Below, in pieces: positions 8,573 to 53,129 of a stretch of 58,029 bases of DNA (the stretch's first letter is position 1; each line of letters begins with the position of its first letter). A model generated the notes under the pieces. It ran no database searches. It had not been told where the DNA came from and was given only the letters and a program-made list of their open reading frames with translations. Origin of the DNA: Myxococcota bacterium (GTDB lineage Bacteria; Myxococcota_A; UBA796); the NCBI GenBank assembly GCA_047621685.1, contig JBLHNG010000003.1:1-58029 (forward strand), in the 5' to 3' direction. Position numbers and translations under genes: made by a program.

Positions 8573-10109
8573 GGGGGAACCTCCTGACCGGGAGACTACA
8601 CCGGGGTCGGTATACTCGGGGCTCGTGCTGCTGAAACCCGGAACCACCATCGGCGACTACACCGTCCAGGCGTTCCTGGGCGCTGGCGGCATGGCGAGCG
8701 TCTACCGGGTGGTCCACACCTCTGGCTCGGTGCATGCCCTCAAGGTCCTCCGACAGACCGGTGATGCCGCCGTCCGTGCCGAGAAGATGGGGCGGTTCAT
8801 CGCTGAGGGAGAGATCCAGGCCCGACTGCGCCACCCCCACCTGCTGCCGGTGCTCGCGCTGATCAAGGATCCAGTGGGGCTGGTGATGGAGCTGCTGAGG
8901 GGCGAAGACCTCGGCGCACGGCTGATCCGGGAGGGCGCCCAGCCGCCGCTGCTGGCGGTTGGGTGGATCCAGCAGATCCTCTCCGCGCTTGCCCTCGTCC
9001 ACAGCCACGACATCGTCCACCGGGACCTCAAGCCGGGCAACATCTTCCTGGAGCGCCTCGCTGATGGCACCGATCAGGTCCGGGTGATGGACTTCGGTCT
9101 GGCGCGGGTGCTGGGGCTGTCGCAGACCCGCACCGGGGCGATCATCGGCTCGCTCTGCTACCTGTCCCCCGAGCAGATCACCGACAACCTCACCGTCGAT
9201 CACCGGGCGGACCTGTTCACCATCGGCGCGCTGCTGTTCGAGCTGCTCACCGGCACCCAGGCCTTCGTCGCGGAGAGCGAGTTCTCGGTCATGGAGCGCA
9301 TCCGCTCTGGCAGCCAGACCCCGGTAGCCGCGATCAACCCCGACATCCCCGACTCGCTCTGCGAGGTGGTCCGGCGCGCGCTGCGTCCCGACCCCGACGA
9401 TCGCTACCCCGATGCCGCCGCCTTCTCTGCGGCCCTCCAGACCACCATCGATGCCGGGGACGTGCCGCAGCAGGTCTCTCATCGCATCCACAACGCCCAG
9501 GAGGCCCTGCTGCGCAAGACGGTGCGGGCCCGGCTGGAGAAGTCGCTGTCAAAGCTGAGCCGCCGACGGGGTGGGATCGCGGGTCTCCCAGAGCTGCCCC
9601 CGCTCCTCCGGGTCTTCACCCTCGCGGGTCGCCTGGAGGCGATGTCCCTGCCCGCGCTCCAGGACGCCGCACAGAGCCTGCCTGACCTCATCGGCGCAGC
9701 CCGGCAGGCGATCCAGGACTGGGAGATCGAGACGGGGCTGCGAATTGATGCCTTCCAGGCGGCCCGGTATGCCCTCCGAGACGCCCAGGTCGCCAACCAG
9801 CCCGACGCCATCGCGGCTGAGGTCGGCGGCGGTCTGGGCGCGCGGTGGCGGTGGCGTCGGGTCGCTCAGGTTCGCTGGGAGGCCGAGGGGGCCGCCGCAC
9901 AGGCTCTCTCCAGGGTCCTCACCACCCTGCCCGAGCTCCCCGAGACTCACCCCCTCACTGCTCCCACACTCCGCCGCCGACAGCGCGCCGAGGATGCCCT
10001 TGTCCGCGCGCGGCATTGCTATCCCCCGCCGCCCCTGTCGATGTGGATGGCGGTGGTGCTTGGGGTGCTGCTTGGGCTGCTGGGGACGGTTGTTTGGGTG
10101 GTTTTGTGA
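8553..10109 (+). CDS. Ser/Thr protein kinase, C-terminally membrane-anchored
   Basis: Intact GAGGMASV, ALKVL, HRDLKPGN, DFGLAR and SPE motifs. Terminal TM segment MWMAVVLGVLLGLLGTVVWVVL. The start is ambiguous among GTG 8553, ATG 8559 and GTG 8625. Confidence 0.9.
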   Translation: MGMSSSKGEPPDRETTPGSVYSGLVLLKPGTTIGDYTVQAFLGAGGMASVYRVVHTSGSVHALKVLRQTGDAAVRAEKMGRFIAEGEIQARLRHPHLLPVLALIKDPVGLVMELLRGEDLGARLIREGAQPPLLAVGWIQQILSALALVHSHDIVHRDLKPGNIFLERLADGTDQVRVMDFGLARVLGLSQTRTGAIIGSLCYLSPEQITDNLTVDHRADLFTIGALLFELLTGTQAFVAESEFSVMERIRSGSQTPVAAINPDIPDSLCEVVRRALRPDPDDRYPDAAAFSAALQTTIDAGDVPQQVSHRIHNAQEALLRKTVRARLEKSLSKLSRRRGGIAGLPELPPLLRVFTLAGRLEAMSLPALQDAAQSLPDLIGAARQAIQDWEIETGLRIDAFQAARYALRDAQVANQPDAIAAEVGGGLGARWRWRRVAQVRWEAEGAAAQALSRVLTTLPELPETHPLTAPTLRRRQRAEDALVRARHCYPPPPLSMWMAVVLGVLLGLLGTVVWVVL

Positions 10110-38596: not shown

Positions 38597-40888
38597 TCAA
38601 GGCACCATCAGCCGAAACATCCCCATGTCCTCCGCCAGCACCGCCGCCCGCCAGGAACCAACCGGGTCCGCAGGGTCCGCATACAGACGCTCCATCAGCG
38701 CACGGCTGTCAGCATCATCGACCGGAATCGTCGCGGCAATGACCGCCTCCCCGCCAGCCAGCAGAAACGCCTGAGCCAGCCCGAGACTCTCCACCGCAAC
38801 CGGGGGAGAGGCTGCACCATCGCAGGTCGAGAGGACAACGGTCTGCGGTGCGCGAGACAGGGTCAGCAAATCACCGACGGTCAGCCGACCGCCGCCGTTG
38901 ACCAGGAACGCGCTGTCGGTCACGATGTTCTCGCGCTCACCATGCCCGGCATAGTGCAGCATCGCGGTGTCTTCCAGCAGCAACAGCAGCGACCTGCGGG
39001 TGACATCGCTGCCCGAGAGCGGGCGCACGACCCTGCCCGCCCGGGTCAGCGCGCCAGTAACCAACGCGGCCTCCGCCCGTGCCCCGGGCAGGTTGAGCCG
39101 GGGATCACTGACGACTGCCGCAGTGTTCTCGATCGGGCGCGGGGGTCGTGGCGGCAGATCGAGGCTATAGCGGACAAGATGATGGGCCAGCAGCGGGCGC
39201 CCCTGGAGCGGGAGCATGTGCAGGTCGATGCGCCTCAGCGTGCCATGTGGCAGCAGCGTGATCACCTCGGCGGATGCGATCTGCTCGGCAAACGGCACCA
39301 GCAGCGCCTCGGCGAGGATCTCTGGAGGAGCGTTGAGGTCGACGGAGGGAATCCGGGCAGTGGTCAGTCCCTCCGAGCTGGCCGCGATCCCCACCCAGTC
39401 CGACCCCAGTGAGAACCACGTCAGCAGCAGCTCGCCGGGATCCGGAGAACGAAGCGAGGCCTCGGGGAGGATGTGCGGGGTGCCAGCATCGAGGGCCTGG
39501 CGGGCAAGCTCCTCCTGCCGACGACGCAGGATCGTCAGGACACGGTTCTGCTCACTGGTGGCCGACCAGTCTCCGGGGGTCACCGCCTCCCGGGCGACGC
39601 GGTAGTCGCGTGCCGCCGACAGCCACCGCTCCCGATCTTCCACGGAGAACCGCTCGGTGAGCAGCCCCTGGAGGAGGAGGAGCCGAGCGGTCCGGATCAC
39701 CACGAGAGCGTCTTCAGGCCGATCGTCCGCCAGCAGCAGGGTCACCAGCAGCCGGTCGGCGGGCAGTCCCCGACTCAAGAAACGATCCCGGCCGTTGTGG
39801 AGTGGGACCAGGAGGCTGTGCTCCAGCAGGACCGCGCGGGCCTCCTTGAGCACCGCGATGGCCTCCGCATGCTGCCCCAGCGACGCCAGGATCTCTCCCT
39901 GGGCCACCAGCGCCTGCCAGCGATGACGCGGAGAGGCCGCACCCGTCGATGCGATCACCCCTTCCATCGCCGAGAGCGCCTCGCCGAGCTGGCCGCGGTG
40001 CTGGTGAAGGCGCCCACGCAGATACGCCGCCCACAGCGTCTCGTCGTGGCGTTCTGGTGCGGCGCTGTTGAGGGCCGACTCCAGGGCATCCAGGTCGCCG
40101 AACTCAAGCGCATCGCGGGCTTGAGTGAGGTGTGTGCGAGAGATCGAGGGACAGTCGATCACTCCCGACAGCTCGATCTCCACCCCGCTCAGCTCAGCGG
40201 CCTCCACCAGCACCCAGCCCCGAGACTCCTCTGCCGCACAGCCATCCTCCGACCGGAGGATCCGGCGCGCCTCCCGGTGGCGGCCCACCGCCGCGAGCTG
40301 CTCCGCCAGCCGAAGCGACACCGGAGTGTTTACGCTGTAAATCATCCGGCCTGAAAGCTGGTTCGCATGACGATAGTGCCTCATCGCGGCCCGATGGTCC
40401 CCCCGGTAGCCCGCCAGATCCCCACGACGGAGCTGGAGCTGCCAGGCAGAGGTCAGATCGCCCGGGAGCCGATCGGTGATGCGCTGGAGGTGTGCTTCCG
40501 CAGTCCCCACATCCCCGTCCGCGATCGCGGCATCGACCTCGGAGAGCCCGGCGAGCACCTGCTGCCGTGTGTCGGTCGTCCCGGTCGTCTTCCCCAGCAG
40601 AAGCCGGCCGATCCGACCGTTGTTGTCCTCGATGACCAGTGTCTCTGCGCCAGACGGCACCGCGACATCCAGCAGCACCCCGCCCCCCTCGATCTGCGAC
40701 ATCGCGCCGACCGGCTGGCCGTCCACCATCACCGACAGCGGCGGCAGGGCCTCGACCCACAGGCGCACCGGCGTGCTCCCCGGCAGACACCGCGGCCCGG
40801 TCGTCACCGCCACACAGCCGTCGAACATCAACGGCAGCGTCGGTGGGTCGGGGGTCTGCATGCAGCTGAGCAGGACGAAGAAGATCAT
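38597..40888 (-). CDS. TPR-like repeat + CHAT (caspase-like) protease domain lipoprotein
   Basis: ATG 40888 overlaps the upstream stop (ATGA). Lipobox MIFFVLLSC. The C-terminal dyad context is LHYAGHGE and VVLSTCDGA. Confidence 0.85.
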   Translation of the reverse strand: MIFFVLLSCMQTPDPPTLPLMFDGCVAVTTGPRCLPGSTPVRLWVEALPPLSVMVDGQPVGAMSQIEGGGVLLDVAVPSGAETLVIEDNNGRIGRLLLGKTTGTTDTRQQVLAGLSEVDAAIADGDVGTAEAHLQRITDRLPGDLTSAWQLQLRRGDLAGYRGDHRAAMRHYRHANQLSGRMIYSVNTPVSLRLAEQLAAVGRHREARRILRSEDGCAAEESRGWVLVEAAELSGVEIELSGVIDCPSISRTHLTQARDALEFGDLDALESALNSAAPERHDETLWAAYLRGRLHQHRGQLGEALSAMEGVIASTGAASPRHRWQALVAQGEILASLGQHAEAIAVLKEARAVLLEHSLLVPLHNGRDRFLSRGLPADRLLVTLLLADDRPEDALVVIRTARLLLLQGLLTERFSVEDRERWLSAARDYRVAREAVTPGDWSATSEQNRVLTILRRRQEELARQALDAGTPHILPEASLRSPDPGELLLTWFSLGSDWVGIAASSEGLTTARIPSVDLNAPPEILAEALLVPFAEQIASAEVITLLPHGTLRRIDLHMLPLQGRPLLAHHLVRYSLDLPPRPPRPIENTAAVVSDPRLNLPGARAEAALVTGALTRAGRVVRPLSGSDVTRRSLLLLLEDTAMLHYAGHGERENIVTDSAFLVNGGGRLTVGDLLTLSRAPQTVVLSTCDGAASPPVAVESLGLAQAFLLAGGEAVIAATIPVDDADSRALMERLYADPADPVGSWRAAVLAEDMGMFRLMVP

Positions 40889-41646
40889 CGCTCGGAGATG
40901 ATGACCTCGCGCTTCCAGAAGGTCCACTGCGGCGGGGGCTCCTCTGCTGCTGCGTCCAGGGTGTCTTCGGAGAAGGTCGCGTGCCACCCCCGGATCGGGA
41001 TCGCGCGCTCCAGGGTGCTGACGGGCCCCGCCGGTCCGACTCCGATCAGCAGGGTGTGGGGCCCAGAGGCCAACGCCAGGTCCTCACCGACGATGCCCCC
41101 CAGTCGGTGTGCGCCGTTGCTGGAGGAAACGTCCAGGTCCATCGGCGCCCACCCATCCGGGCCACGGGTGAACACCACGACCTGTGTGGAGCTGTCGGGC
41201 TGGGTGCGGGGTCGGAGGATGAGGCGCATCCGGGAGCCGATCGAGTAGGCCATGACCTCGTCTGGATCGGAGTCGCTCAGGGAGCGCTCGGGCAGATCAC
41301 CGGGGCGGGCGATCAGCCGATAGACCGGCGGCTCTGCGGACGGCGTGCTGGCGACATACCCGAGCCGCACCACCATCACTGCCGCCATCACTGCCACCAG
41401 ACGCGGCAGCCAGGGCCACCACCGACGGCGCGGTTTCTGCGGCACCCGAGGGGGTGGAATCACGGCCAGCTCTGCACGAATCCGACGTGCAAAGCCAGAT
41501 CCGAGGGGAGCCAGGGCGATCGCAGCAGCCGGGTCCGACTCCGCGAGCGCCGCTGCCTCCTCCGCGCTCAGCTCCCCGGCAGCCAGCTGATCCCAGCGGG
41601 CGTCGAGGTGCTCCATGTCGATCTCATCATCCAGGTCTCGTTTCAT
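40885..41646 (-). CDS. single-pass membrane anti-sigma-factor-like protein
   Basis: Lies 3 nt downstream of the sigma gene. It has a short acidic cytoplasmic N-terminus, the TM segment WWPWLPRLVAVMAAVMVV, and a roughly 150-aa extracytoplasmic domain. Confidence 0.6.
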   Translation of the reverse strand: MKRDLDDEIDMEHLDARWDQLAAGELSAEEAAALAESDPAAAIALAPLGSGFARRIRAELAVIPPPRVPQKPRRRWWPWLPRLVAVMAAVMVVRLGYVASTPSAEPPVYRLIARPGDLPERSLSDSDPDEVMAYSIGSRMRLILRPRTQPDSSTQVVVFTRGPDGWAPMDLDVSSSNGAHRLGGIVGEDLALASGPHTLLIGVGPAGPVSTLERAIPIRGWHATFSEDTLDAAAEEPPPQWTFWKREVIISER

Positions 41647-41649
41647 GCC

Positions 41650-42327
41650 TCACCCTGCCTCGGCCCGAAGCCGCATCAGTTCCTGCCTCAATGCCTCGAC
41701 CAGTCGGCGACGCCACTGGTAGATCGCCGCCGCGCTGCGACCGGTCTGCTCCTCGATGGCCGACACCGGGAGCCCCTCCAGAAACAGCAGCCGCATCATC
41801 TCTGTGCCCAGCGGATTCTGGACCGACCCCACTGCCGCAAAGCACCGCATCAGCAGGTCTCGGCGGATCAGGGCGTCCTCCAGTCCCATCTCACTCGCCG
41901 TCTGGGCCAGGATCTCCCCGGACAGCAGCGTCTCGGTCTTCCAGCGCTGCCGCAGCAGGGAGATCGTGCGCCGCCGGGCCACCACGCCGATGAAGCCGAC
42001 CAGCGGAACCCCGTGGCGGCTCGACCAGGTCCGGAGGATCCGGCAGTCGTCCTCGAACAGCGACAGGCTGATCTCCTGCACCAGGTCCTCGACCTCCATC
42101 CGGAGGTTGTGTCGGACCGACGCTGGGCCATGGCGAAGCACCGCTCGGGCGACCCGGGCGTGGATCACCGGCAGCAGGCAGATCACCAGACGCTCCCTTG
42201 CGATGGTGTCGCCGCGAAGCGTCTCGACCAGGAGCTGCTCAGGGGTGTTGGACATCACCGCCTTCGTTGTAGGGGAGGCCTCAGCCGTCGGCCCGGCCCA
42301 GGCAAACAGCGCCCGGAGCGTGCTCAT
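41650..42327 (-). CDS. ECF-type RNA polymerase sigma factor
   Basis: ATG 42327 overlaps the upstream stop (ATGA). Region 2 DLVQEISLSLFED and region 4 LLFLEGLPVSAIEEQTGRSAAAIYQWRRR. Confidence 0.8.
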   Translation of the reverse strand: MSTLRALFAWAGPTAEASPTTKAVMSNTPEQLLVETLRGDTIARERLVICLLPVIHARVARAVLRHGPASVRHNLRMEVEDLVQEISLSLFEDDCRILRTWSSRHGVPLVGFIGVVARRRTISLLRQRWKTETLLSGEILAQTASEMGLEDALIRRDLLMRCFAAVGSVQNPLGTEMMRLLFLEGLPVSAIEEQTGRSAAAIYQWRRRLVEALRQELMRLRAEAG

Positions 42328-42626
42328 GGCTCGAACCGATAGCCCACACCATAGACGGTCTGGAGGTGATGGGGGTGGCGAGGATCCGTCTCCAGCTTGC
42401 GCCGAAGTCGCTGAATGGTGGCGTATACCGTTCGTGATTGCGTCCCCGGCAGGTAGCCCCACACCTCCTCAAGCAGCTCAGCCTGGCTGAACAGCTCCCC
42501 GGGATGCCGCGCAAACCACTGCATCAGCCGGTGCTCGGTCCGGGTCAGCCGGAGGATCTGATCCGCGCGGCGGATCTCACGCCGCCTCAAGTCGATCTCC
42601 GCATCATCCAGGGCAATCACATCCAC
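42324..42626 (-). CDS. stand-alone OmpR/PhoB-type winged-helix DNA-binding domain protein
   Basis: LTRTEHRLMQWFARHPGELFSQAELLEEVWG...TVYATIQRLRRKL...LQTVYGVGYRF. No receiver domain. GTG start with AGGAGG 6 nt upstream. Confidence 0.8.
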   Translation of the reverse strand: MDVIALDDAEIDLRRREIRRADQILRLTRTEHRLMQWFARHPGELFSQAELLEEVWGYLPGTQSRTVYATIQRLRRKLETDPRHPHHLQTVYGVGYRFEP

Positions 42627-44159: not shown

Positions 44160-44378
44160 TTTCGAAAGGAATCACACAAGAATTCGACAGAATGTTCTCT
44201 GAAACGATGCCGCTTCGCCGAAGGCGTTGCAAGCCGTTTCAGGGATCGCCAATCCAAAGAATCATTGTATAATCACAACTTGTGGGCTGCTGCTGCCCTG
44301 ATTCTTGCTCTTTTTGAGCCTTGCCAGACGGGCTTCTGGCACCTCTAAAGTAGACCGCTCCCAACCCCGGGCCTCCCC

Positions 44379-44771
44379 ATGCTCCTCCTCCTCGCCTGCT
44401 TCACCAGGACCGACCCACCGACCGAGCATGCCTCCACCCATCCCGATGCCAACAGCCGCCCCCAGCTCTCCAAGATGATGATGCTCACCGGCGACCTCAA
44501 GGCGCAGCTCTGCGACCTGCCATGCAGCGGTCCCTTCACCGACCTCCAGATCTGGCGCGACGGAGACGCCGGTCCGCTCGCCCTCATCACCCACACCGGC
44601 GACCTGGAGGCCTGCTCCCATCCACCGACAACCTGGCTGGACACCCGGGGCGAGGTCCGGCTCGTCCAGGAGTCGCGCCCAGTGGGTCCGGCAGAAGCGG
44701 AGGCGCTGGCGGAGGAACGCAGCGCCCTGACGACAGGGCTCATCAAGGCGGAGCGCCTGTCCTGTGATTAG
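44379..44771 (+). CDS. small lipoprotein, unknown function
   Basis: Lipobox MLLLLAC. 130 aa with good GC3. Confidence 0.6.
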   Translation: MLLLLACFTRTDPPTEHASTHPDANSRPQLSKMMMLTGDLKAQLCDLPCSGPFTDLQIWRDGDAGPLALITHTGDLEACSHPPTTWLDTRGEVRLVQESRPVGPAEAEALAEERSALTTGLIKAERLSCD

Positions 44772-44780
44772 GCTCACCGG

Positions 44781-45500
44781 GTGCCGTTCACCCTCGCCCA
44801 TCCCGCTGCGATCCTGCCGCTGCGCTGGCTGCTTCCCGGGCTGCCTCTGGTCGGCCTGATCATCGGCGCGATGGTGCCGGACGTGCTGTACTTCATCGCC
44901 CTTCGCCCCACCGGCACCCTCGGACACACCCTGCCCGGAGTGCTGCTCCAGGGCGTGCCCGCCGGGCTGATCCTCGCTGGGCTGTGGTGCAACCTCATGC
45001 ACGCCCCGATGGTTCGCCTCCTGCCGGCCCCGCTCGCTACCCGCGTCCCGCCGCCGACTCCGCTCCGACTCCCGGGGGTGCCGAAGATGGCGGTCGCGAT
45101 CGCGCTGGGGGCCTGCACGCACCTGCTGTGGGACGGCTTCACCCACCGCACCGGCTTCGCGGTGGCTCGATGGCCGGTGCTCACAGAGACGGTGGGGCCG
45201 CTGCCGCTCTACAGCCTGCTCCAGCACGGCTGCGGGGTGCTCGGGCTGCTGGTCCTCGCCGGGGTGGCCGGACTCGGCCTGTCTCGCCAGCCGGTCCGCT
45301 CCGTGAGCCCACATCCCCGTCGAGGCATGCTCGGGGTCGGGCTCATCCTCGGCAGCCTCGGCATGACGGTCTGGGCGGCGGCTGGTGTTGATGGGGTGAA
45401 TGCGATCATCGTGCGCGGGGTCATCGGGGCAGTCAGCGGACTCTACCTCGCCGCCCTCCTGACTTCGGTGTGGATCAGGCTCACCACACCGAAGGGGTGA
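44781..45500 (+). CDS. DUF4184 family membrane protein
   Basis: N-terminal PFTLAHPAAILPL, and HLLWDGFTH later. GTG start. Confidence 0.75.
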   Translation: MPFTLAHPAAILPLRWLLPGLPLVGLIIGAMVPDVLYFIALRPTGTLGHTLPGVLLQGVPAGLILAGLWCNLMHAPMVRLLPAPLATRVPPPTPLRLPGVPKMAVAIALGACTHLLWDGFTHRTGFAVARWPVLTETVGPLPLYSLLQHGCGVLGLLVLAGVAGLGLSRQPVRSVSPHPRRGMLGVGLILGSLGMTVWAAAGVDGVNAIIVRGVIGAVSGLYLAALLTSVWIRLTTPKG

Positions 45501-45502
45501 AG

Positions 45503-45613
45503 CTCAGCAGCAGCCGCAGAACGAACACAGCCCGGTCGCTTCTGCAGCCAGGGCCAGCCCGGGAACCACAAGCATTCCGCCGATTGCAACACGTCGAATC
45601 CAGTTCTTAATCA
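45503..45613 (-). CDS. 36-aa secreted Cys-rich peptide (not in the ORF track)
   Basis: My own translation gives MIKNWIRRVAIGGMLVVPGLALAAEATGLCSFCGCC. The ATG is preceded by AAGGAGA with 6-nt spacing. Signal-peptide-like N-terminus with ALA-AE. Confidence 0.5.
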
Positions 45614-45707
45614 TCACGCTCTCCTTCGAGCCGGTTTGTGGGTGGCTCGGAGGGGATAGGCGCGTCGACCATAAAGCGTGACAGCGAGTCTGCGAATCAG
45701 ACCAGCA

Positions 45708-46583
45708 CTACTTCGGCGGCACGCTGTTCGCTTCCATCCACTCCAGCAGCGCCTCGGAGAGCCCTTCAGACCAACCGTGCCCCTGGAGGTCCATGACCCA
45801 GTCCGTGAACGTGACGGTGTGACCTTCCTCTTCGAGGATCTCAGCCGTCTCGACAGACAGGCTGTAGTCGACGACCTGATCGTCTGGATCGTGGGCGAGG
45901 TAGATGGGCAGCTTCCGGACGGGTGCCGGATCGGGGTAGTCGAAGCGACTGCCCAGTCCGCCGCTGGAGACGATGCCCATGGCGGTAAACCGGTCCGGTG
46001 CGGTGACCCCCAGCCACATCCCGACGAAGCCCCCTGCGGAGTTGCCCACCCACCAGGTCCGCCCCTCGTCGAGGTCCAGGCTCTCCCACAGGGTGTCGAT
46101 GAGCGGCTCGATCCAGTCGGCGTCGTCGTAGGACCAGCTGTGAAGCTCCTGGCCGCCCTCGATCACCCCGGGTGCCACGAAGACGTAGCCCTCAGCGATG
46201 GCGAGGTGGTGGAGGCTGGTGCCGGTCGGGTCGGACCAGTCCTCAAAGAAGTTACCGGGACTCTGCCCGCCATGCCCCCACAGCAGCAGCGGTGCACAGG
46301 CAGGCAGCCCCTCCGGCACCCGAACCCAGACCGGCACGCCGTCCTGCTCAATGAAGTGGTCGCCCGCAGCCAGCCCGCTCCCGCCGGTGCAGGAAGAGGC
46401 GGTGTCGGTGGTGTCGGTGGTGTCGGTGGTGTCGGTGGTGTCAGTATCAGCGGTGTCTGTGTCGGCGGTGTCGGCGATGTCAGTATCCGCAGTGTCCGTA
46501 GCGGTGTCGTTGTCGACCTCGCCGGTGCCAGTGCAGCCGAGGATGAGTGCGGTCAGGGTGAGCATTGGGCCTCCTGACCGCAC
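45708..46583 (-). CDS. esterase lipoprotein (alpha/beta hydrolase, PHB-depolymerase/feruloyl-esterase-like)
   Basis: Lipobox LTALILGC, a (T/A-D)n linker, and nucleophile elbow GNSAGG. The start may be the ATG at 46565. Confidence 0.8.
   Translation of the reverse strand: MRSGGPMLTLTALILGCTGTGEVDNDTATDTADTDIADTADTDTADTDTTDTTDTTDTTDTASSCTGGSGLAAGDHFIEQDGVPVWVRVPEGLPACAPLLLWGHGGQSPGNFFEDWSDPTGTSLHHLAIAEGYVFVAPGVIEGGQELHSWSYDDADWIEPLIDTLWESLDLDEGRTWWVGNSAGGFVGMWLGVTAPDRFTAMGIVSSGGLGSRFDYPDPAPVRKLPIYLAHDPDDQVVDYSLSVETAEILEEEGHTVTFTDWVMDLQGHGWSEGLSEALLEWMEANSVPPK
46401..46515. repeat. 6/12-nt tandem repeat encoding (D-T/A)n
   Basis: (ggtgtc)n on the plus strand, inside the esterase gene. Confidence 0.85.
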
Positions 46584-46591
46584 GATAACCG

Positions 46592-47380
46592 CTACCAGGG
46601 CTGGGCCAGTCGCTGACCGCCCTGGACCTTGGTGGACTCCAGCAGCGTGTCACCTGGGAAAGTGCCAGCGTATGTGGGCACGTCGTCCTTGTCGTTGAAG
46701 GTCATCACGACCTTGTCCTGCATGTAGGTCGTCCCCGAGTCGGACTTCAGGAGCATCTCCAGCTCGAACTTACCAGCACCGACATCGCTCTTGGTGAACG
46801 CTGCGCTGTGGCCCTGGGCGGTGGTGATGTCGAGGTCGATGGTGGCAGAGGACACGTCTTGAGTGGGGCTGATCCGCCGGGTGGTGACCGTCATGTCCTG
46901 GCTGGCGCCGTCGTCGCTGCTGGCCTTGTAGCTCGCCTTGAAGGTGTCGCTGTTGGAGGCATCCCAGCCAAAGGTGAGCAGCCAGTCGGGCACCGGCATG
47001 GGATGGGTGATGCGATCGAAGATGAAGGTGGAGTCTGCGGCTGGGACATCGAAAAACGCCGAGCGCCGCATCCGGACCACGCTGTCCCATGGGGCCACGT
47101 TGGTGCCGCCGGTCATCTGCCACCGGACCTCGACGGTGTCGCCAGTCGTGACAGTGACGGCGCTGGAGGCGGTCATCGCGCGGGTGGCGTTGCTGAAGGA
47201 GAGAGTCGCCTGCTGGCTGCCGTTGACCAGGATCTTACCGACCAGTCCGCTGGGATTCCAGCCAGCAAGACCAGGGTTTATCAGCGCAGACGGGCTGACC
47301 AGGGTCAGGGTTCCAGCTTTGATATCAACCTTGACGCGCATAATAATCGACCCGAGGGGCCACTCATTCTCACTAGACAT
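46592..47380 (-). CDS. hypothetical cytoplasmic beta-rich protein (262 aa, no Cys)
   Basis: Starts 19 nt downstream of the CHAT gene on the same strand. Ser/Thr/Val/Asp-rich with no signal peptide and no recognisable motif. Confidence 0.65.
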   Translation of the reverse strand: MSSENEWPLGSIIMRVKVDIKAGTLTLVSPSALINPGLAGWNPSGLVGKILVNGSQQATLSFSNATRAMTASSAVTVTTGDTVEVRWQMTGGTNVAPWDSVVRMRRSAFFDVPAADSTFIFDRITHPMPVPDWLLTFGWDASNSDTFKASYKASSDDGASQDMTVTTRRISPTQDVSSATIDLDITTAQGHSAAFTKSDVGAGKFELEMLLKSDSGTTYMQDKVVMTFNDKDDVPTYAGTFPGDTLLESTKVQGGQRLAQPW

Positions 47381-47399
47381 TCTGTGCCTCGATTACAGT

Positions 47400-49823
47400 T
47401 CAGTAGACGATTGGAGCAGCCCAGATCCGGGCTGGCAGCCCCTCACGGCGGAGCTGTTGGCAGACCAGAGCGGTGACCCGGGCTGGATCGTTAAACGGCC
47501 AGTGAGTCATCATGCACTGCACAAAGCGCCCCATCTCGCGGTCCTGGACCGGCCATCGGGTGGCGATCACTGCGGATGCACCCGCGCTGAGGAAAGCGCC
47601 GGCCATCGACCGCTCGACACCTCGGTGCAGCGCTGAGGCACCGGTCGCGCAGCCCGACAGCAGCACGATGGGGTTGCCGGAGAGCGGAAGGTTAGAGATC
47701 TCAGGTGGCCCGATGAGGCCGTCGGCCATCACCAGCAAGGGCATGCCACGCTCTCGGCGGGAGTGAACGCCGATGTGCAGCAGGCCGACCGGGGGAAGCT
47801 CCAGGAGCGCCCGGTGGGTCACCTCGCTTCGGCGGAGGAACACATCTGCCGAGGCAACCTCCGCATCTGCCATCGGGAGGTCTCCGTGGGCGTCCGCCAG
47901 ACTGGCGACCGCAGCCGGCAGCACCATGGGCTGTGCGCCTCGGCGACGACGGGGACCCGCGAGATCAATGAACTGCGGGGGACGGGCATCGCCGACCTGT
48001 GCAGCGATGTACGGCATCGGAGCGTTTGCCAGCAGGCTATTGCTGCCCAACAGGATCTGTCCTGTCGGGATCCCATCGGGGAACAGGATCTCAGCCAGCC
48101 GGATGGCAACCCTGGGGGTTCCGCCTGTGAGGGCTTCCTGCTGGCTGGTGTGGACCAGGCGCAGGAACTCATCCCGACTCATGCGGATGTTTCGGACCGA
48201 TGCTCCGGGCTGACCGCTGAGCACCAGCAGTCCCTGGGGCACCGCGAGGATCCCCATCAGCGAGATCCGATCGTCTGCGGCATCTGCGGTGTGCAGGAAG
48301 TACAGGCGCATCAGGTGACGGGCAGCAGCAGCATGAGCCTCGATGGCCAGATTCAGCAGCGCAATCAGGGTGTGCAGCGTGCTGGCATGGACCCGACCGT
48401 CATCGTGTTGGTGCAGCTCGTCCTCAACGGCGGTGATGACCTGCGCCCAGTCGGTCACGCGACCAGAGCGCTGCGTGACCAGGATCCGGAGCAGGATCCA
48501 GCTCAGCCCTCGACTGCTGAGGGTCTTCAGCTGCTCGACCTCTTCGTTGAGCGCCTGCAGCCGGACCTGAGCCTCAGAGAGCTGTCCGCTGCCGACAAAG
48601 GCCTCGATGAGGTAGCCGCGGGCCTCCATCGCGCTGTACGGAGACAGCTTGTCGATCCAGGGAGCATTCAGGGACCGGAGGGCGACATCGTAGAGACCGA
48701 GCGCGACGTTGAGGCGCAGGCCGATCTGTCCCAGGCGCGCGACCTCTTCAGGGGCGGCAATCTGTGCCATCGCCAGCCACCGGGCCGCGGCCTCCAGCTC
48801 CCAATTGTTCAGTGCTGCCTGGGCCTGCTCCCGGCAGACCCAGGCGGCGTTTCGGTTGTCCAGGGCCACCCGACGGACGAGCGCCTGAAGCACCGACTCC
48901 GCAGCGGGCTGAAACTGGAGACAGTTCAAGGCAATCGCCAAACCCAGCGCCGCCTGAATCTCACCGGCAGTGTCCTTGACTTCTATCCCCCGCTCCAGCG
49001 CCTCCCGATAGAGACGAGACGCTTCAAAAAAGCTGCCCCGCTGGCCCAATTTTCCCGCTCTATAGATCAGCGCGATGGTCTCTTCATCCGCCGGCTTGAG
49101 CCGCTCCGCCGTATACAACACCCGGACATCGGAGGGCTCAAAGCCGGTGTCGAGGTTTAGCTCTGCGGCGTGCAGGCAGTGCTCGGCGCCCTGGAGGAGG
49201 TCTGTGAGGCTCGTGGAGTCGTGGGAGCGGTAGACGTCAGAGAGCCACAACCCCCAGAGGATGGGATCGACGGCCTGGGAGGAGGACAGCGCGACGATGC
49301 GGCGCGTGCCCTCAGGCAGGTGGGCCAGCTCCAGAGACACACCAGGGCGCTCCCGGCTGAGCTGGTGGACCAGGATCGGCGGCCCACCCTGCATCACCGC
49401 GTAGAGCAGCAGATGACAGGCCAGGGGATCGTGAGCCAGGGCCCCGCGCTCGGTCCGGTGAAGCTCCAGCGCGCCCTGAGAGCGATAGTTTCGGTAGAGG
49501 CTCTGAGAGGTCATCTCCGGAAACGGTGCCAACCCCTGGGTCTGTGCCAGCAGGAGGGCGGGAGCCGGAGGAGCGGTGCGAGCTGCCGTCCGGGCCTGGA
49601 GCGCCTTGAGGGAAGGCGGCTTCGGCATGGAAGCAACCACGGTCGACTCGCGGACCATCGCACCGAGCTGCCCAAGCTGCTTCTCTAGTTGGAGCTGGCC
49701 CTGACACTCACTGCAGCCCTGAGCGTGCTGACGTGCCGGTGCGGGCCAGACTCGGAATCCGGTCCACTCCAGGGTTCCCTGGAGAATTTGCTCTTCAATC
49801 AACTTGTGGGTCAACTCAGTCAT
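47400..49823 (-). CDS. zinc anti-sigma (ZAS, HxxxCxxC) N-terminal domain fused to TPR-like repeats and a CHAT protease domain
   Basis: ATG 49823 overlaps the sigma stop (ATGA). H33-AQG-C37-SE-C40. C-terminal LHIGVHS and IVLLSGCATG dyad context. No signal peptide or TM segment. Confidence 0.85.
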   Translation of the reverse strand: MTELTHKLIEEQILQGTLEWTGFRVWPAPARQHAQGCSECQGQLQLEKQLGQLGAMVRESTVVASMPKPPSLKALQARTAARTAPPAPALLLAQTQGLAPFPEMTSQSLYRNYRSQGALELHRTERGALAHDPLACHLLLYAVMQGGPPILVHQLSRERPGVSLELAHLPEGTRRIVALSSSQAVDPILWGLWLSDVYRSHDSTSLTDLLQGAEHCLHAAELNLDTGFEPSDVRVLYTAERLKPADEETIALIYRAGKLGQRGSFFEASRLYREALERGIEVKDTAGEIQAALGLAIALNCLQFQPAAESVLQALVRRVALDNRNAAWVCREQAQAALNNWELEAAARWLAMAQIAAPEEVARLGQIGLRLNVALGLYDVALRSLNAPWIDKLSPYSAMEARGYLIEAFVGSGQLSEAQVRLQALNEEVEQLKTLSSRGLSWILLRILVTQRSGRVTDWAQVITAVEDELHQHDDGRVHASTLHTLIALLNLAIEAHAAAARHLMRLYFLHTADAADDRISLMGILAVPQGLLVLSGQPGASVRNIRMSRDEFLRLVHTSQQEALTGGTPRVAIRLAEILFPDGIPTGQILLGSNSLLANAPMPYIAAQVGDARPPQFIDLAGPRRRRGAQPMVLPAAVASLADAHGDLPMADAEVASADVFLRRSEVTHRALLELPPVGLLHIGVHSRRERGMPLLVMADGLIGPPEISNLPLSGNPIVLLSGCATGASALHRGVERSMAGAFLSAGASAVIATRWPVQDREMGRFVQCMMTHWPFNDPARVTALVCQQLRREGLPARIWAAPIVY

Positions 49824-50398
49824 GGCTGTTGTTCCTCAAGCGCAGCTCGGAGCAGCACTCGGATTCGATGAAGTCGGCTTCGCACAGCCAATGGACTCAG
49901 CGGGGGCTCCAGCTGGGCTGCAATCTCCGCAGGCTTCAGCTGCTGCTCGACACTCATCCAAAAAATCATGGGATCAGGCGGCTCCAGGAAGCGAACCACG
50001 TCGAGGATGCTGCGAGCGGTCTCGTCGCGCTGGACGGGGTCGGGCATCTCATAGGAGGTGGTAAACCGGGCGAGATAGCGCGCCTGACGTTCCGCATGGC
50101 GCTGTGTGTTCCGACGGACCCGCATCGCCTCGTAGCGGGCGAAGGTCGCAAGCCAGCCGCCCAGACTGCGCCCATCAAACCGCTGCCAGTTCTCCAGCAT
50201 CAGGGCGAAGACATTCTGGAGCTGCTCCTCGGATTCCTCCTGAGAGAACCCCTTTCGCAGAAAGATCGCCATCAGCTCTGGCCCATGAACCTCCCAGGCA
50301 AGCGGAACCACCGGCCCCACATCTCCGCTCGCAACAGCTTCATCGAGCAGACGTCTCAGCTCATCCGGTGACCGATACATGGGAGAACTCTGACTCAT
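49820..50398 (-). CDS. ECF-type RNA polymerase sigma factor (divergent)
   Basis: ATG 50398 overlaps the receiver-gene stop (ATGA). Region-2-like LQNVFALMLENWQRFDGRSLGGWLATFARY and region-4-like KPAEIAAQLEPPLSPLAVRSRLHRIRVLL. Confidence 0.7.
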   Translation of the reverse strand: MSQSSPMYRSPDELRRLLDEAVASGDVGPVVPLAWEVHGPELMAIFLRKGFSQEESEEQLQNVFALMLENWQRFDGRSLGGWLATFARYEAMRVRRNTQRHAERQARYLARFTTSYEMPDPVQRDETARSILDVVRFLEPPDPMIFWMSVEQQLKPAEIAAQLEPPLSPLAVRSRLHRIRVLLRAALEEQQP

Positions 50399-50826
50399 TC
50401 GGAGTGTGCAGACTCCGCGCTGATCAGATTTCGCAGGTGGGAGAACGAGAATGGCTTGCACAGGATCGGTCGGCCGAGGGTCTTGAGGTGTGCCTCGGTG
50501 TCCCAGGAGCATCCGCCGGTCATGAACACCGTCCGAGACTGCTGCTCTGGGGACAGGCGGGCGTAGAACGTCGGGCCATCCATCACCGGCATGACGACAT
50601 CAGAGACGATCATGTGTGGAGTGCCATGCACTGCGATGTCGGCGAGGGCATCGACAGCGGATGCGAACAGGCTGACAGAGTAGTCCTCAAGCAGCTCCCC
50701 GAGCAGCATCCGAATCACCGGGTCATCATCGACAACCAGGACTCGAAGGGACGCCTGGGGCATCTGACAGTGATGACTTGATGATGGCTGTGGAGACACC
50801 TGCTCCCTCCGGTTTAAGGCGTTCAT
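50395..50826 (-). CDS. stand-alone response-regulator receiver domain protein
   Basis: RVLVVDDDPVIRMLL...MIVSDVVMPVMDG...VFMTGG...CKPF. ATG 50826 overlaps the upstream stop (ATGA). The ATG at 50763 is an alternative start. Confidence 0.8.
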   Translation of the reverse strand: MNALNRREQVSPQPSSSHHCQMPQASLRVLVVDDDPVIRMLLGELLEDYSVSLFASAVDALADIAVHGTPHMIVSDVVMPVMDGPTFYARLSPEQQSRTVFMTGGCSWDTEAHLKTLGRPILCKPFSFSHLRNLISAESAHSE

Positions 50827-51575: not shown

Positions 51576-53129
51576 CTATTGATCGATGCTGGCATTCAGC
51601 TCAAAGCCGGTGATGGTCTGAAGCTCAGCGGTCTGTGCGTCGTAGAAGCTCAGCCGCCCCAGCTCGTGCGCCTGGCTGGCGTAGGCGGTGTGAGAGCCTG
51701 GGAAGACCCCGATGTGCGCCGGGTTGCTGAGCAGGTTGATCTCATCGAGCAGCATCGCGTCGAGGTCCACCGACTCCAGGTAGGGCAGGTCTTCGAGGTA
51801 GAAGAAGGCGTACTGCCCATCTTCTGAGAAGGTGATCCCGGCGGGAACGGCGGACAGCCGGAGGGCGTTGGTGAAGTAGTCGTCGAGGTCGACGATGGTG
51901 ATCGCTGGCGCACCCTGAAACGGGGAGTCCTCGTCGATGTCCTTGTGGTCTTCCTTTGGATGGACGATCAGCGCTGAGCGCACCCCGGGGGCCATGTGAA
52001 CGCTCTCGATGGACTTGACGGTGCCGTGGGTGGTGAACGCATCGGTCTGGTCGGGGGCCAGGAGATCCCAGCTGACAAACCGCGGCTCCCCGGCGGCGGT
52101 GCTGTAGAGGATGGCGGTGTCTCCGGTGTCGGAGATGCTGATGCTGCCGAGCACGGTGTCGACGGGCAGGGGCATGACCTCCGGCAGCGCCTCCGGCACG
52201 GCGAGGTCGTAGATCCACACCTCTGAGGATCCCCGGGCCACTGCCATCGCCCGGGTGCCATCGGGGGTGACATCGAGGTCGGTGGGGTTGTCTCCGGCGG
52301 CCAGGACATCGGTCTCTCCGCTGACGAGATCGACGAGGATGAGGTCGGAGACTCCGTACTGCCGCACGATGGCGTACTGCCCGTCGGGGGTGACCAGGAC
52401 CTCCTCGGCCTCCGGTGGCTCCACGGTGTCCTCGATCTGGATGCGGGTCAGCACCGGCTCGTCTCCGCGCAGGTCGAGGTGGACCAGCCAGGAGTCGGAG
52501 ACCAGCACGGCGTCCCCGGTCTGCGAGAACTGGATCTGTGCCGGCTCGAAGCCCACCGACTGCGGCCAGTCCACCCCGCTGGTGATGTCCACCACGCTGA
52601 CCTCGCTGTAGGACCATGCACCGCTGGTGTCGTGGTCGGCGGGGGCCTCGGCCTGGTAGTAGCACAGCGCCCAGCGGCCATCGGGGGAGAGCTGGAGCTG
52701 GTTGAGGTGGGGGCGAATGGGCACCGCCTGGAGCTCCAGGCTGGTGGCGTCGACGATGTGGACCTCATCGAGTCCGGTGTCGAGGATGACCACCGCACCA
52801 TACGGATCCGAGGCGACCATGACCGAGGGGTTGGGGCCGATCTCGGCGGTCAGGGCGGAGAGGTCGGCGATGGAGACCCGGGTCAGCGAGTTGCGGTCGG
52901 GGTTGGCGATGTAGATGTTGTCGTCTACTGCGACCGGCTCCAGGGCGATGTAGGGGGACTCCTCCTCAGGATCGTAGCCGTCGTCGTAGGTGTCGGTGTC
53001 GGTGTCGGCGTCGGTGTCGGCGTCGGTGTCCGCATCGGTGTCGCTGTCGCTGTCGGCCTCATCGCTGGACACGGAGGCGGCGTCCTTGCCTTTACACGAC
53101 AGGAGCATCAAGAGGGTGATTGCACGCAT
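51576..53129 (-). CDS. beta-propeller lipoprotein (YncE/lactonase-like repeats)
   Basis: Lipobox LLMLLSC, a (D-S/T/A)n linker, and repeated ...SPDG..A.V... blades. Confidence 0.75.
   Translation of the reverse strand: MRAITLLMLLSCKGKDAASVSSDEADSDSDTDADTDADTDADTDTDTYDDGYDPEEESPYIALEPVAVDDNIYIANPDRNSLTRVSIADLSALTAEIGPNPSVMVASDPYGAVVILDTGLDEVHIVDATSLELQAVPIRPHLNQLQLSPDGRWALCYYQAEAPADHDTSGAWSYSEVSVVDITSGVDWPQSVGFEPAQIQFSQTGDAVLVSDSWLVHLDLRGDEPVLTRIQIEDTVEPPEAEEVLVTPDGQYAIVRQYGVSDLILVDLVSGETDVLAAGDNPTDLDVTPDGTRAMAVARGSSEVWIYDLAVPEALPEVMPLPVDTVLGSISISDTGDTAILYSTAAGEPRFVSWDLLAPDQTDAFTTHGTVKSIESVHMAPGVRSALIVHPKEDHKDIDEDSPFQGAPAITIVDLDDYFTNALRLSAVPAGITFSEDGQYAFFYLEDLPYLESVDLDAMLLDEINLLSNPAHIGVFPGSHTAYASQAHELGRLSFYDAQTAELQTITGFELNASIDQ
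52989..53058. repeat. 6/12-nt tandem repeat encoding (D-T/A/S)n
   Basis: (ggtgtc/ggcgtc)n on the plus strand, inside the propeller lipoprotein gene. Confidence 0.85.

Follow-up and report, generated by a model that had tools for sequence, protein, structure and literature searches.

The window analysed here is a 58,029-nt stretch of a Myxococcota genome (GenBank assembly GCA_047621685.1, contig JBLHNG010000003.1), and on its reverse strand it holds a very small open reading frame whose product would end in the Cys-dense tail CSFCGCC. The first-pass annotation, made from the letters alone, had read this frame as an unannotated secreted peptide, had placed it at the end of the sigma/CHAT gene block that lies upstream, and had likened its leader-plus-Cys-rich-core layout to RiPP or chalkophore precursors such as methanobactin MbnA. 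The locus raises the question of whether so short a frame is a gene at all and, if it is, what controls it and what its product may do outside the cytoplasm.

A 36-codon gene with a predicted signal peptide

Read directly, the minus strand at the locus runs gaAGGAGagcgtgATG, then MIKNWIRRVAIGGMLVVPGLALAAEATGLCSFCGCC, then a TGA stop. The 36-residue sequence given in the first pass is therefore correct, and only its coordinates, 45503–45613, need to be moved by one base. The elements of the gene and its immediate surroundings are the following:

45504–45614, minus strand: coding sequence of the 36-aa precursor, translated from the sequence (ATG at 45612–45614, TGA at 45504–45506).
45621–45626, minus strand: Shine-Dalgarno-like AAGGAG, 6 nt 5′ of the ATG, read directly from the sequence.
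45546–45614, minus strand: predicted Sec signal peptide, residues 1–23, with the cut after A21-L22-A23, assigned by eye.
45507–45545, minus strand: predicted mature peptide AEATGLCSFCGCC, 13 aa with 4 Cys, from the translation.
45463–45494, minus strand: hairpin of 11 bp with a 10-nt loop, found by folding, starting 9 nt 3′ of the stop.
45486–45640, no strand assigned: stretch matched by a 175-nt metatranscriptome contig (run X5) aligned to the window.

An in-frame GTG lies one codon 5′ of the ATG (45615–45617), and the listing of open reading frames gives 45504–45617; we prefer the ATG because both its 6-nt spacing from AAGGAG and the starts of the homologues fit it. This AAGGAG is the ribosome-binding site that had been noted before the frame, and GGAG at a comparable distance also precedes the paralogue described below and the orthologues of that paralogue. 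The signal features were read by eye from the sequence and the family alignments, not by a signal-peptide predictor, and comprise the basic residues K3, R7 and R8, a hydrophobic run of 12 residues (V9–L20), P18-G19, and A21-L22-A23 directly before A24, where Ala-Leu-Ala forms a predicted signal peptidase I site. Comparison across the family strengthens two further points of the first-pass annotation: its Sec-type N-terminus (KNWIRR, a hydrophobic core, ALA) carries an A-x-A site that is invariant in both family alignments (A4 and A7), and the 4 Cys that it had counted within the last 7 residues of the predicted 13-aa mature part belong to a Cys-rich tail that is itself a conserved feature.

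The 36-codon frame is a real gene. Pfam and NCBIfam scans of the peptide gave zero matches (NCBIfam at E ≤ 0.1), and an orthologue, P0008, likewise had 0 in NCBIfam; the ESM Atlas gave no usable match, the exact sequence was absent from the large protein collection searched, and degenerate DNA patterns for the C-terminal motif had 0 matches in genome contigs and 0 in metagenome contigs. A profile search of 1.84 billion representative proteins returned three proteins at E ≤ 0.001. P0008 is also 36 aa long, is 72% identical to the window peptide (26/36 residues), keeps all four Cys and ends in GLCSLCGCC; its cluster mate P0009 differs from it by two residues, and the tail TGLCS[FL]CGCC is common to the window peptide and both of these proteins, whose source contigs, from NCBI and Logan, are 3103 and 1705 nt long. 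The genome that holds the window also encodes a 53-aa paralogue on contig C45, with orthologues in a sister genome (G001) and in another genus (G005), and the neighbours of the paralogue are kept in G001 and not in G005. Over 24 aligned codons the window gene and the paralogue have 7 identical codons, 9 synonymous changes and 8 non-synonymous ones (mostly V/L/I/M swaps), which, as far as the aligned codons tell, is the pattern expected of a conserved protein. The 72% identical orthologue, this codon pattern and an upstream motif common to homologous loci, described below, all bear out the first-pass reading of the frame as a true gene, and the conservation check in related genomes that had been suggested with it was positive as well, family small ORFs having been read in 15 genomes.

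An RNA library provides a further indication. In X5, a metatranscriptome run of another study in which a near-identical copy of the gene is present, the contig (depth 7.9) follows the window over 155 nt with 1 differing letter and then continues for 20 nt that are unlike the window beyond 45486; elsewhere in 44800–46700 (1.9 kb) the run gave nothing besides a low-complexity repeat at 46400–46499. The evidence is a single contig from a single run, in which strand, ends and level are unreadable and the library may hold DNA, so that it hints at a short transcript without proving one. The DNA runs X2–X4 cover parts of the stretch, not the peptide gene.

On its 3′ side the gene meets a convergent DUF4184 gene (44781–45500; Pfam E = 2.5e-52, whole model covered), the stop codons of the two genes lying 3 nt apart, and the hairpin sits within the last codons of that neighbour. 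In an 81-nt context the minimum free energy is -36.2 kcal/mol, with z = -2.36 and equal folding in 3 of 200 shuffles. There is no T-tract at the hairpin, a scan of 45300–46700 for consensus terminators found none, Rfam gave no match, and the hairpin may act as a terminator or as a stabiliser.

Two other readings of the frame were rejected. Selenocysteine read-through of the TGA would leave the frame open for 168 further codons, antisense to the Pfam-supported DUF4184 gene and running into the frame of an ORF at 44262–45314; the hairpin after the TGA is also longer than, and unlike, those after the two candidate selenocysteine UGA sites of the window. The second was that of a lipoprotein processed by signal peptidase II. 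The lipobox consensus at the end of such a signal is L-[AS]-[GA]-C; the residues before the first Cys are here T-G-L, and the reading was rejected because this is no lipobox.

The peptide family and its three-gene unit

Of the genomes searched with profiles, 11 of 154 in the order, 20 of 182 in the class and 7 of 401 sampled evenly over the phylum gave matches, and small ORFs were counted as family members only after they had been read, in 15 genomes. Weak matches that turned out to lie in the signal peptide of a large protein were dropped, among them G070, G087, G128, G031, G047 and G042 in the class and G491 in the phylum sample, and so were G016, G006, G011 and others from another search; G088 was assigned to neither group. 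Also dropped were three loci in genome contigs from unrelated phyla, in which only the signal-peptide part matches, and one metagenome locus, where the match covers the signal peptide of a larger protein (582 aa, by eye a PQQ-type dehydrogenase). Keyword searches of the open-access literature found no published description of the family.

In all members the signal ends in P-x-x-A-x-A-A, and a short linker rich in Gly leads to a tail that is hydrophobic and contains Cys, with P18, A21, A23 and A24 invariant in 13/13 members of alignment A4 and 11/11 of alignment A7. Long forms (...LCSM...GGCP...) stand alone, with two conserved Cys and no regulator genes beside them. Short forms, to which the window peptide belongs with a gene about 30 nt shorter than those of the long forms, carry dense Cys tails (...CGCC, ...CGGGCCG, ...FGCGC, ...CGLCPF, ...SSCPF).

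When the downstream genes of one relative (G094) were used as tblastn queries, 9 of 17 family loci proved to have an orthologous ECF sigma gene immediately 3′ of the peptide gene, and in 8 of those 9 the sigma gene is followed by a gene for a membrane protein of ~170 aa. G248, from another class, adds a tenth sigma-linked case, and the overall gene order is thus seen in 8–10 relatives. The peptide gene is the first in this unit, and the module sigma factors, also ~170 aa long, are 42–64% identical among loci. The tails of the sigma-linked peptides vary in sequence and are always Cys-rich; that of G248 ends in SCGCDVCACGSNCNCGK, with 7 Cys among the last 17 residues.

Pfam gave no match for the 8 module membrane proteins even at E ≤ 10. 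Their N-terminus has an invariant A-Y-E followed by a conserved Arg in 8/8 aligned copies, and Lys/Arg clusters lie at about residues 60–68, at about 115–127 and at the C-terminus. Hydropathy together with these clusters indicates that the protein probably has six spans with its N-terminus inside, a model which suggests that the second and third helical hairpins carry its Cys clusters at their outward-facing turns. NrsF, the anti-sigma factor of SigF, is described in the accessible part of PMC3511200 as spanning the membrane six times, with an N-terminus of 25 residues and with two cysteines on the periplasmic side that are needed to hold the sigma factor. Both NrsF (PF06532) and the module membrane protein would have a short cytoplasmic N-terminus, six spans (probable for the module protein) and Cys at outer turns (predicted for the module protein); the module gene directly follows an ECF sigma gene, and by analogy an anti-sigma role may be proposed for its product. 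However, hhalign against five true NrsF proteins from relatives gave a probability of 0.24%, that is, no sequence relation, and the membrane protein is therefore NrsF-like in architecture and not a member of the NrsF family.

A Pfam scan of 48 ORFs that flank the 10 sigma-linked loci revealed no recurrent neighbour and no maturase-type domain. The flanks vary, with MopE-motif proteins, an FMN reductase, an NDH-2-type oxidoreductase, a glyoxalase, CobW and others, and in one genome (G069) a gene of the HMA metal-chaperone type lies directly 5′ of the peptide gene. A metal-related neighbour is thus present in only 1 of the 10 sigma-linked loci, which counts against reading the peptide as a metal sink.

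In the assembly that holds the window (89.8% complete), no orthologue of the module sigma factor was found with an HMM of eight module sigma factors: the best frame scored 69.7 bits, against 221–267 for members, and it is followed by a ChrR-like anti-sigma gene. An HMM search of 47,022 open frames at E ≤ 1 likewise found no homologue of the membrane protein. As the cognate pair was not found, the window gene would be either an orphaned effector controlled in trans, read by another sigma factor, or one whose partners lie in the unassembled tenth of the genome.

The promoter-like motif and the neighbouring sigma/CHAT block

Upstream of the peptide gene the minus strand carries the following features:

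49820–50512, minus strand: ECF sigma factor gene.
47400–49823, minus strand: gene for an 807-aa protein with an N-terminal H-x3-C-x2-C motif (ZAS) and a C-terminal CHAT domain.
46592–47380, minus strand: gene for a 262-aa protein with no family match.
45708–46583, minus strand: lipoprotein esterase gene, separated from the peptide gene by a 93-nt gap.
45656–45682, minus strand: promoter-like motif GTCACG-N15-GCCTAT (-35-like block at 45677–45682, -10-like block at 45656–45661).

The motif lies inside the 93-nt gap after the esterase gene and ends 41 nt before the ATG. Its two blocks give it the form of an ECF promoter, and the first of them is similar to that of the SigF site GTAACC-N16-CGAA, as given in the accessible part of PMC3511200; a scan of 45300–46700 for consensus sigma-70 promoters found none. 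The exact motif occurs once in the 8.4-Mb assembly, at the peptide gene, the reversed-pattern control also giving 1. When one mismatch is allowed there are 28 sites, and a ribosome-binding site and the expected kind of ORF follow the window site only; the three closest variants, which we read, lie inside coding frames.

The same arrangement recurs in the relatives. Of the 10 sigma-linked loci, all except G248 have the pattern GTCAC[G/A]-N14/15-G[C/T]C[C/T/A]A[T/C] 5′ of the peptide gene, a count of 9 made on the very loci from which the motif was derived, only the window occurrence being an independent test of it. The distance to the ATG is 27–42 nt in the sigma-linked loci and the window. The relaxed motif, expected 1.5e-4 times per 100 nt, is present in 0 of 7 stand-alone long-form loci. 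Across five module genomes the exact motif has 1, 1, 2, 2 and 0 sites, with reversed-pattern controls of 0; the zero stands for G053, which has a GTCTAT variant instead, and both surplus sites fall inside long open frames. Conserved -35-like and -10-like blocks, as looked for in an ECF promoter, hence precede both the sigma operons and the target gene in the window. Since the motif lies 41 nt 5′ of the ATG, is common to homologous loci and is unique in the assembly, we take it to be the gene's own promoter. Judged by this motif, the peptide operon would be the only visible target of the sigma factor, and the module sigma factor would be the protein that reads it.

These results also bear on the placement of the peptide gene at the end of the sigma/CHAT block. 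The sigma/ZAS-CHAT pair resembles DdvS/DdvA of Myxococcus xanthus, as far as these are described in the accessible part of PMC11506125. Homologues of the 262-aa protein occur in 13 further genomes of the order, and in 6/6 loci fetched the ZAS-CHAT gene lies directly before the homologue. In a scan that recovered the window peptide as positive control, none of these six syntenic sigma/ZAS-CHAT/262-aa loci carried a family peptide (HMM, E ≤ 10), the motif, or a small ORF with a signal and a Cys tail; no further copies of the motif were found near the sigma/CHAT block. With a promoter-like motif of its own, and with the peptide in 0/6 syntenic loci of other genomes, the gene is therefore a separate unit that stands beside the block, and we no longer count it as the last member. 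A search of the four nearest relatives did not show the esterase and DUF4184 genes in conserved synteny, and matches to the esterase there cover only its low-complexity N-terminus.

Possible roles of a peptide predicted to be exported

In related bacteria the peptide gene is grouped with genes for a stress-type sigma factor and a membrane protein that contains cysteines, and the peptide would therefore most likely trap metals or oxidants outside the cytoplasm. We would give roughly an even chance to this reading, that of a sigma-controlled periplasmic thiol peptide acting as a metal or oxidant sink, which draws on analogy with known systems. Export and cleavage, anti-sigma function, the match between sigma factor and motif, and the metal or oxidant chemistry are the steps that we infer, and they would proceed as follows. 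The 36-residue precursor would use the Sec pathway, and signal peptidase I would cleave it after Ala23, leaving the 13-residue AEATGLCSFCGCC in the periplasm. The window gene would be transcribed as its own short unit from the ECF-type promoter, and in related Myxococcota the same promoter would drive an operon of peptide, ECF sigma factor and membrane protein. The membrane protein, by analogy with SigF/NrsF, would be a thiol-based anti-sigma sensor whose Cys clusters are disturbed by a thiol-reactive envelope signal, either a thiophilic metal or an oxidant; the sigma factor would then be released, would read GTCACG-N15-GCCTAT and would have the precursor made, and the Cys-rich tail of the product would bind a thiophilic metal such as Cu(I) or be oxidised in place of more valuable targets. 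Against the sink speaks the consideration that free thiols in an oxidising periplasm may form mere disulfides.

A more specific version has, in our judgement, only a slender chance of being right. In it the 13-mer with its four Cys would be an unmodified periplasmic metal or thiol buffer, a minimal chalkophore or mini-metallothionein, and the only visible output of an undescribed switch made of an ECF sigma factor and a six-span anti-sigma factor with Cys clusters; by competing with the Cys of the sensor for the inducing metal or oxidant it would close a negative feedback, and in the window genome it would have become separated from its regulators and be controlled in trans.

The known kind of system to which the locus belongs is the ECF-controlled small periplasmic sink peptide. 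According to the accessible part of PMC11626156, SigF/NrsF control bufferins, which carry Sec signals, bind copper and accumulate in the periplasm. The bufferins of Caulobacter vibrioides (BufA1/DUF2282 and BufA2, gig operons) are likewise ribosomal, with a Sec signal and conserved Cys, and their genes are likewise associated with an ECF sigma factor and a polytopic anti-sigma factor, their stated function in the accessible text being copper buffering. A Sec signal followed by a Cys-bearing core is also predicted for the window peptide, from its sequence and from alignments A4 and A7. In contrast, bufferin cores are described there as 60–70 residues long and folding as small proteins, whereas the mature part in the window has about 13; Pfam found no DUF2282 or Buf2-type match in the peptide, and bufferins need an MNIO (BufB) and a DUF2063 partner (BufC) alongside, none of which was found at any family locus.

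In Azospira suillum (SigF/NrsF, YedY1), MrpX is a Met-rich sacrificial periplasmic sink in the account accessible in PMC4436054. It is likewise a small periplasmic peptide that relies on one oxidisable sulfur amino acid and is under the control of an ECF sigma factor and a polytopic anti-sigma factor, and in that account it is unmodified and strongly induced by the sigma/anti-sigma pair. MrpX is, however, recycled by a co-regulated methionine sulfoxide reductase, whereas the window family uses Cys in place of Met and no reductase recurs beside the module.

The comparison with methanobactin made in the first pass was not borne out. MbnA is a short precursor with several Cys in its C-terminal core that binds copper once modified, and its N-terminus is a cleaved leader for a dedicated exporter. 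The window peptide is likewise a short precursor with several C-terminal Cys, but it matches no NCBIfam or Pfam model, has a Sec-type signal and not an MbnA-type leader, and has no MbnB/MbnC beside its gene; no maturase lies beside any family locus, and the MNIO genes are elsewhere. The search of the genome for DUF692 (PF05114), which the first-pass annotation had proposed as a check, found two MNIO genes, on contigs C394 and C324, and tblastn with both proteins found no MNIO in 20 family loci. The C394 MNIO is ChrH-like at 267 bits, below the cut-off of 600, and is preceded by a signal-bearing, precursor-like ORF that ends in DDCPGCGLG and has a weak match to a chryseobasin-related precursor model (24.5 bits, cut-off 40). 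Behind the C324 MNIO gene, where a partner gene would stand, is a 249-aa ORF with no NCBIfam match; the MNIO gene itself lies at a contig end, and the remaining 164 nt upstream show no precursor gene. MNIOs are present somewhere in 5/5 module genomes tested, with 1–5 in each, and in one of them (G095) the nearest MNIO is >170 kb from the peptide gene.

A sizeable share of bufferin precursors is genetically unlinked to MNIO genes, some precursors being encoded apart from their enzymes (PMC12452194, in its accessible part), and because this is so often the case and all five module genomes hold MNIOs, modification in trans may be considered. The peptide would then be a RiPP precursor whose Cys are converted in the cytoplasm by an enzyme encoded elsewhere, for example an MNIO/DUF692 protein, before Sec export, and its product would carry thiooxazole- or oxazolone/thioamide-type metal ligands and be exported as bufferins are. 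We regard this as improbable. A Sec signal with a Cys-rich core is indeed the layout of bufferin-type precursors (PMC11626156, accessible part), the genome itself has two MNIO genes, and contig C324 breaks off close to its MNIO gene before any precursor is seen, but the missing Pfam and NCBIfam matches, the 20 family loci without an MNIO, the 48 flanking ORFs without a maturase and the distance in G095 all argue the other way. The C394 MNIO has, moreover, a ChrA-related precursor candidate of its own (below cut-off), and the wide variation of the tails among relatives fits recognition by a specific enzyme poorly.

It is also unlikely, in our view, that the peptide is a regulatory ligand, the exported tail or the uncleaved precursor contacting the Cys clusters of the membrane protein and tuning sigma release in a feedback loop that involves no bulk chemistry. 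The peptide gene comes first in an autoregulated-looking operon in 10 genomes, both partners carry Cys on the predicted outer side, and the NrsF paper raises, in its accessible part, a possible third, unknown sensory component (PMC3511200). However, the window genome keeps the peptide gene, its promoter and a matching RNA-library contig, whereas the membrane partner was not found there, and the length and Cys pattern of the tail vary far beyond what a specific ligand would lead one to expect.

A further possibility is that the peptide is secreted, forms disulfides and targets other cells as an antimicrobial or a signal, in the manner of a Sec-dependent bacteriocin or pheromone; Myxococcota are known producers of antagonistic compounds. 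The peptide is small, predicted to be exported, and combines hydrophobic residues with Cys, and the long-form paralogues stand alone with the same neighbours in two genomes. Yet no immunity, transporter or receptor gene recurs beside family loci, what accompanies the short forms is a stress-type sigma module and not export or immunity genes, and we judge 13 residues with four Cys in seven to be atypical for such peptides, all of which makes this role distinctly unlikely.

That the gene is a decaying remnant, a truncated and functionless relic of the longer paralogue left behind after loss of the sigma module, is very improbable, since its lower length (~30 nt less than the long forms), its third-position GC of 0.64 and the cognate sigma and membrane genes not found in the assembly stand against the same length and tail in P0008/P0009 from other sources, an intact ribosome-binding site, start, frame, promoter motif and hairpin, and a near-identical copy in the RNA library of another study.

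The peptide family, the sigma group as a unit and the membrane protein that resembles NrsF and is unrelated to it are all absent from the libraries queried. If the reading of the peptide as a sigma-controlled periplasmic sink is true, a family of very small and probably unmodified Cys peptides would join the few sigma-controlled sinks, bufferins and MrpX, and with it would come a compact three-gene unit that senses and responds through a sensor that is not recognisably related to NrsF in sequence. So short a peptide can be synthesised, which makes its metal and oxidant chemistry directly testable, and the unique promoter motif offers a ready reporter for the inducing signal. The locus would also mean that a regulatory module can have as its main product an open reading frame too short for the usual annotation threshold.

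Sequence around the peptide gene

Base composition falls locally at the gene of the 36-aa Cys-rich precursor, with a GC fraction of 0.62 at 45500-45999 and of 0.68-0.72 in the flanking intervals; third-position GC of the peptide CDS is just 0.64, and several of its codons end in A or T. A contig from X5, a metatranscriptome run of another study, matched the window with 99% identity across the peptide gene and was wholly unlike it past 45486 (45466-45485), the break falling inside the hairpin (45463-45494, minus strand). A close relative in the X5 sample therefore has another 3' flank.

In the lipoprotein esterase gene, we located a low-complexity repeat:

46400-46499, Asp-Thr-rich stretch with DTADTD-type repeats

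This repeat draws contigs from many organisms, giving a summed depth of 130-384 in three DNA runs, and a similar one follows the signal in other lipoproteins of the window (e.g. 51576-53129).

Sigma/CHAT sets of the window

Upstream of the peptide gene lies a trio, and the window carries another set of the same kind (38597-42462, minus strand):

46592-50512, minus strand, trio of ECF sigma factor, 807-aa anti-sigma-like protein and 262-aa protein
41650-42462, minus strand, sigma-like gene of the second set
40885-41646, minus strand, 253-aa protein of the second set
38597-40987, minus strand, 796-aa TPR-CHAT protein of the second set

The 807-aa protein combines an N-terminal HxxxCxxC with a C-terminal CHAT domain, and the sigma/ZAS-CHAT pair of the trio resembles DdvS/DdvA of Myxococcus xanthus as presented in the consulted passages of PMC11506125, where no mention of the conserved 262-aa third gene was found. 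The 262-aa protein matched no family; its homologue was immediately preceded by a ZAS-CHAT gene in all six loci fetched from other genomes.

Relatives of the peptide gene and their neighbours

Two features were mapped beside or among relatives of the peptide gene:

L002 (C45, same genome as the window) 1501-1662, plus strand, 53-aa long-form paralogue with two Cys (LCSM...GGCP)
L070 (contig C47 of the related genome G069) 8749-8964, minus strand, 71-aa HMA-domain (CopZ-like) gene

The paralogue, which adjoins neither a sigma gene nor the GTCACG-N14/15-GCCTAT motif, is flanked by a convergent gene and by a putative monomeric isocitrate dehydrogenase gene, so read by eye; the sister genome keeps the same neighbours. 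The HMA-domain gene sits immediately upstream of the peptide-sigma-membrane unit; of the ten sigma-linked loci, only this one has a neighbour related to metals. Additionally, in L052 (contig C24 of related genome G171) the peptide frame lacks a stop and continues into the sigma-encoding region, giving a 192-aa open frame at about 1483-2061, and tblastn splits the sigma factor into two pieces; this may reflect a fusion or overlap, or else a frameshift introduced by the assembly.

MNIO genes elsewhere in the genome

Two MNIO (DUF692) genes lie on other contigs of the window's genome, one of them mapped as follows:

L004 (C394) 1213-2682, minus strand, ChrH-like MNIO gene and the ORF before it

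That preceding ORF bears a signal, ends in DDCPGCGLG and matches a chryseobasin-related precursor model weakly (24.5 bits, below cut-off). The second MNIO gene stands at the end of C324 (L005), is followed by a 249-aa ORF, without family match, that is possibly its partner gene, and shows no precursor upstream, where 164 nt of the contig remain.
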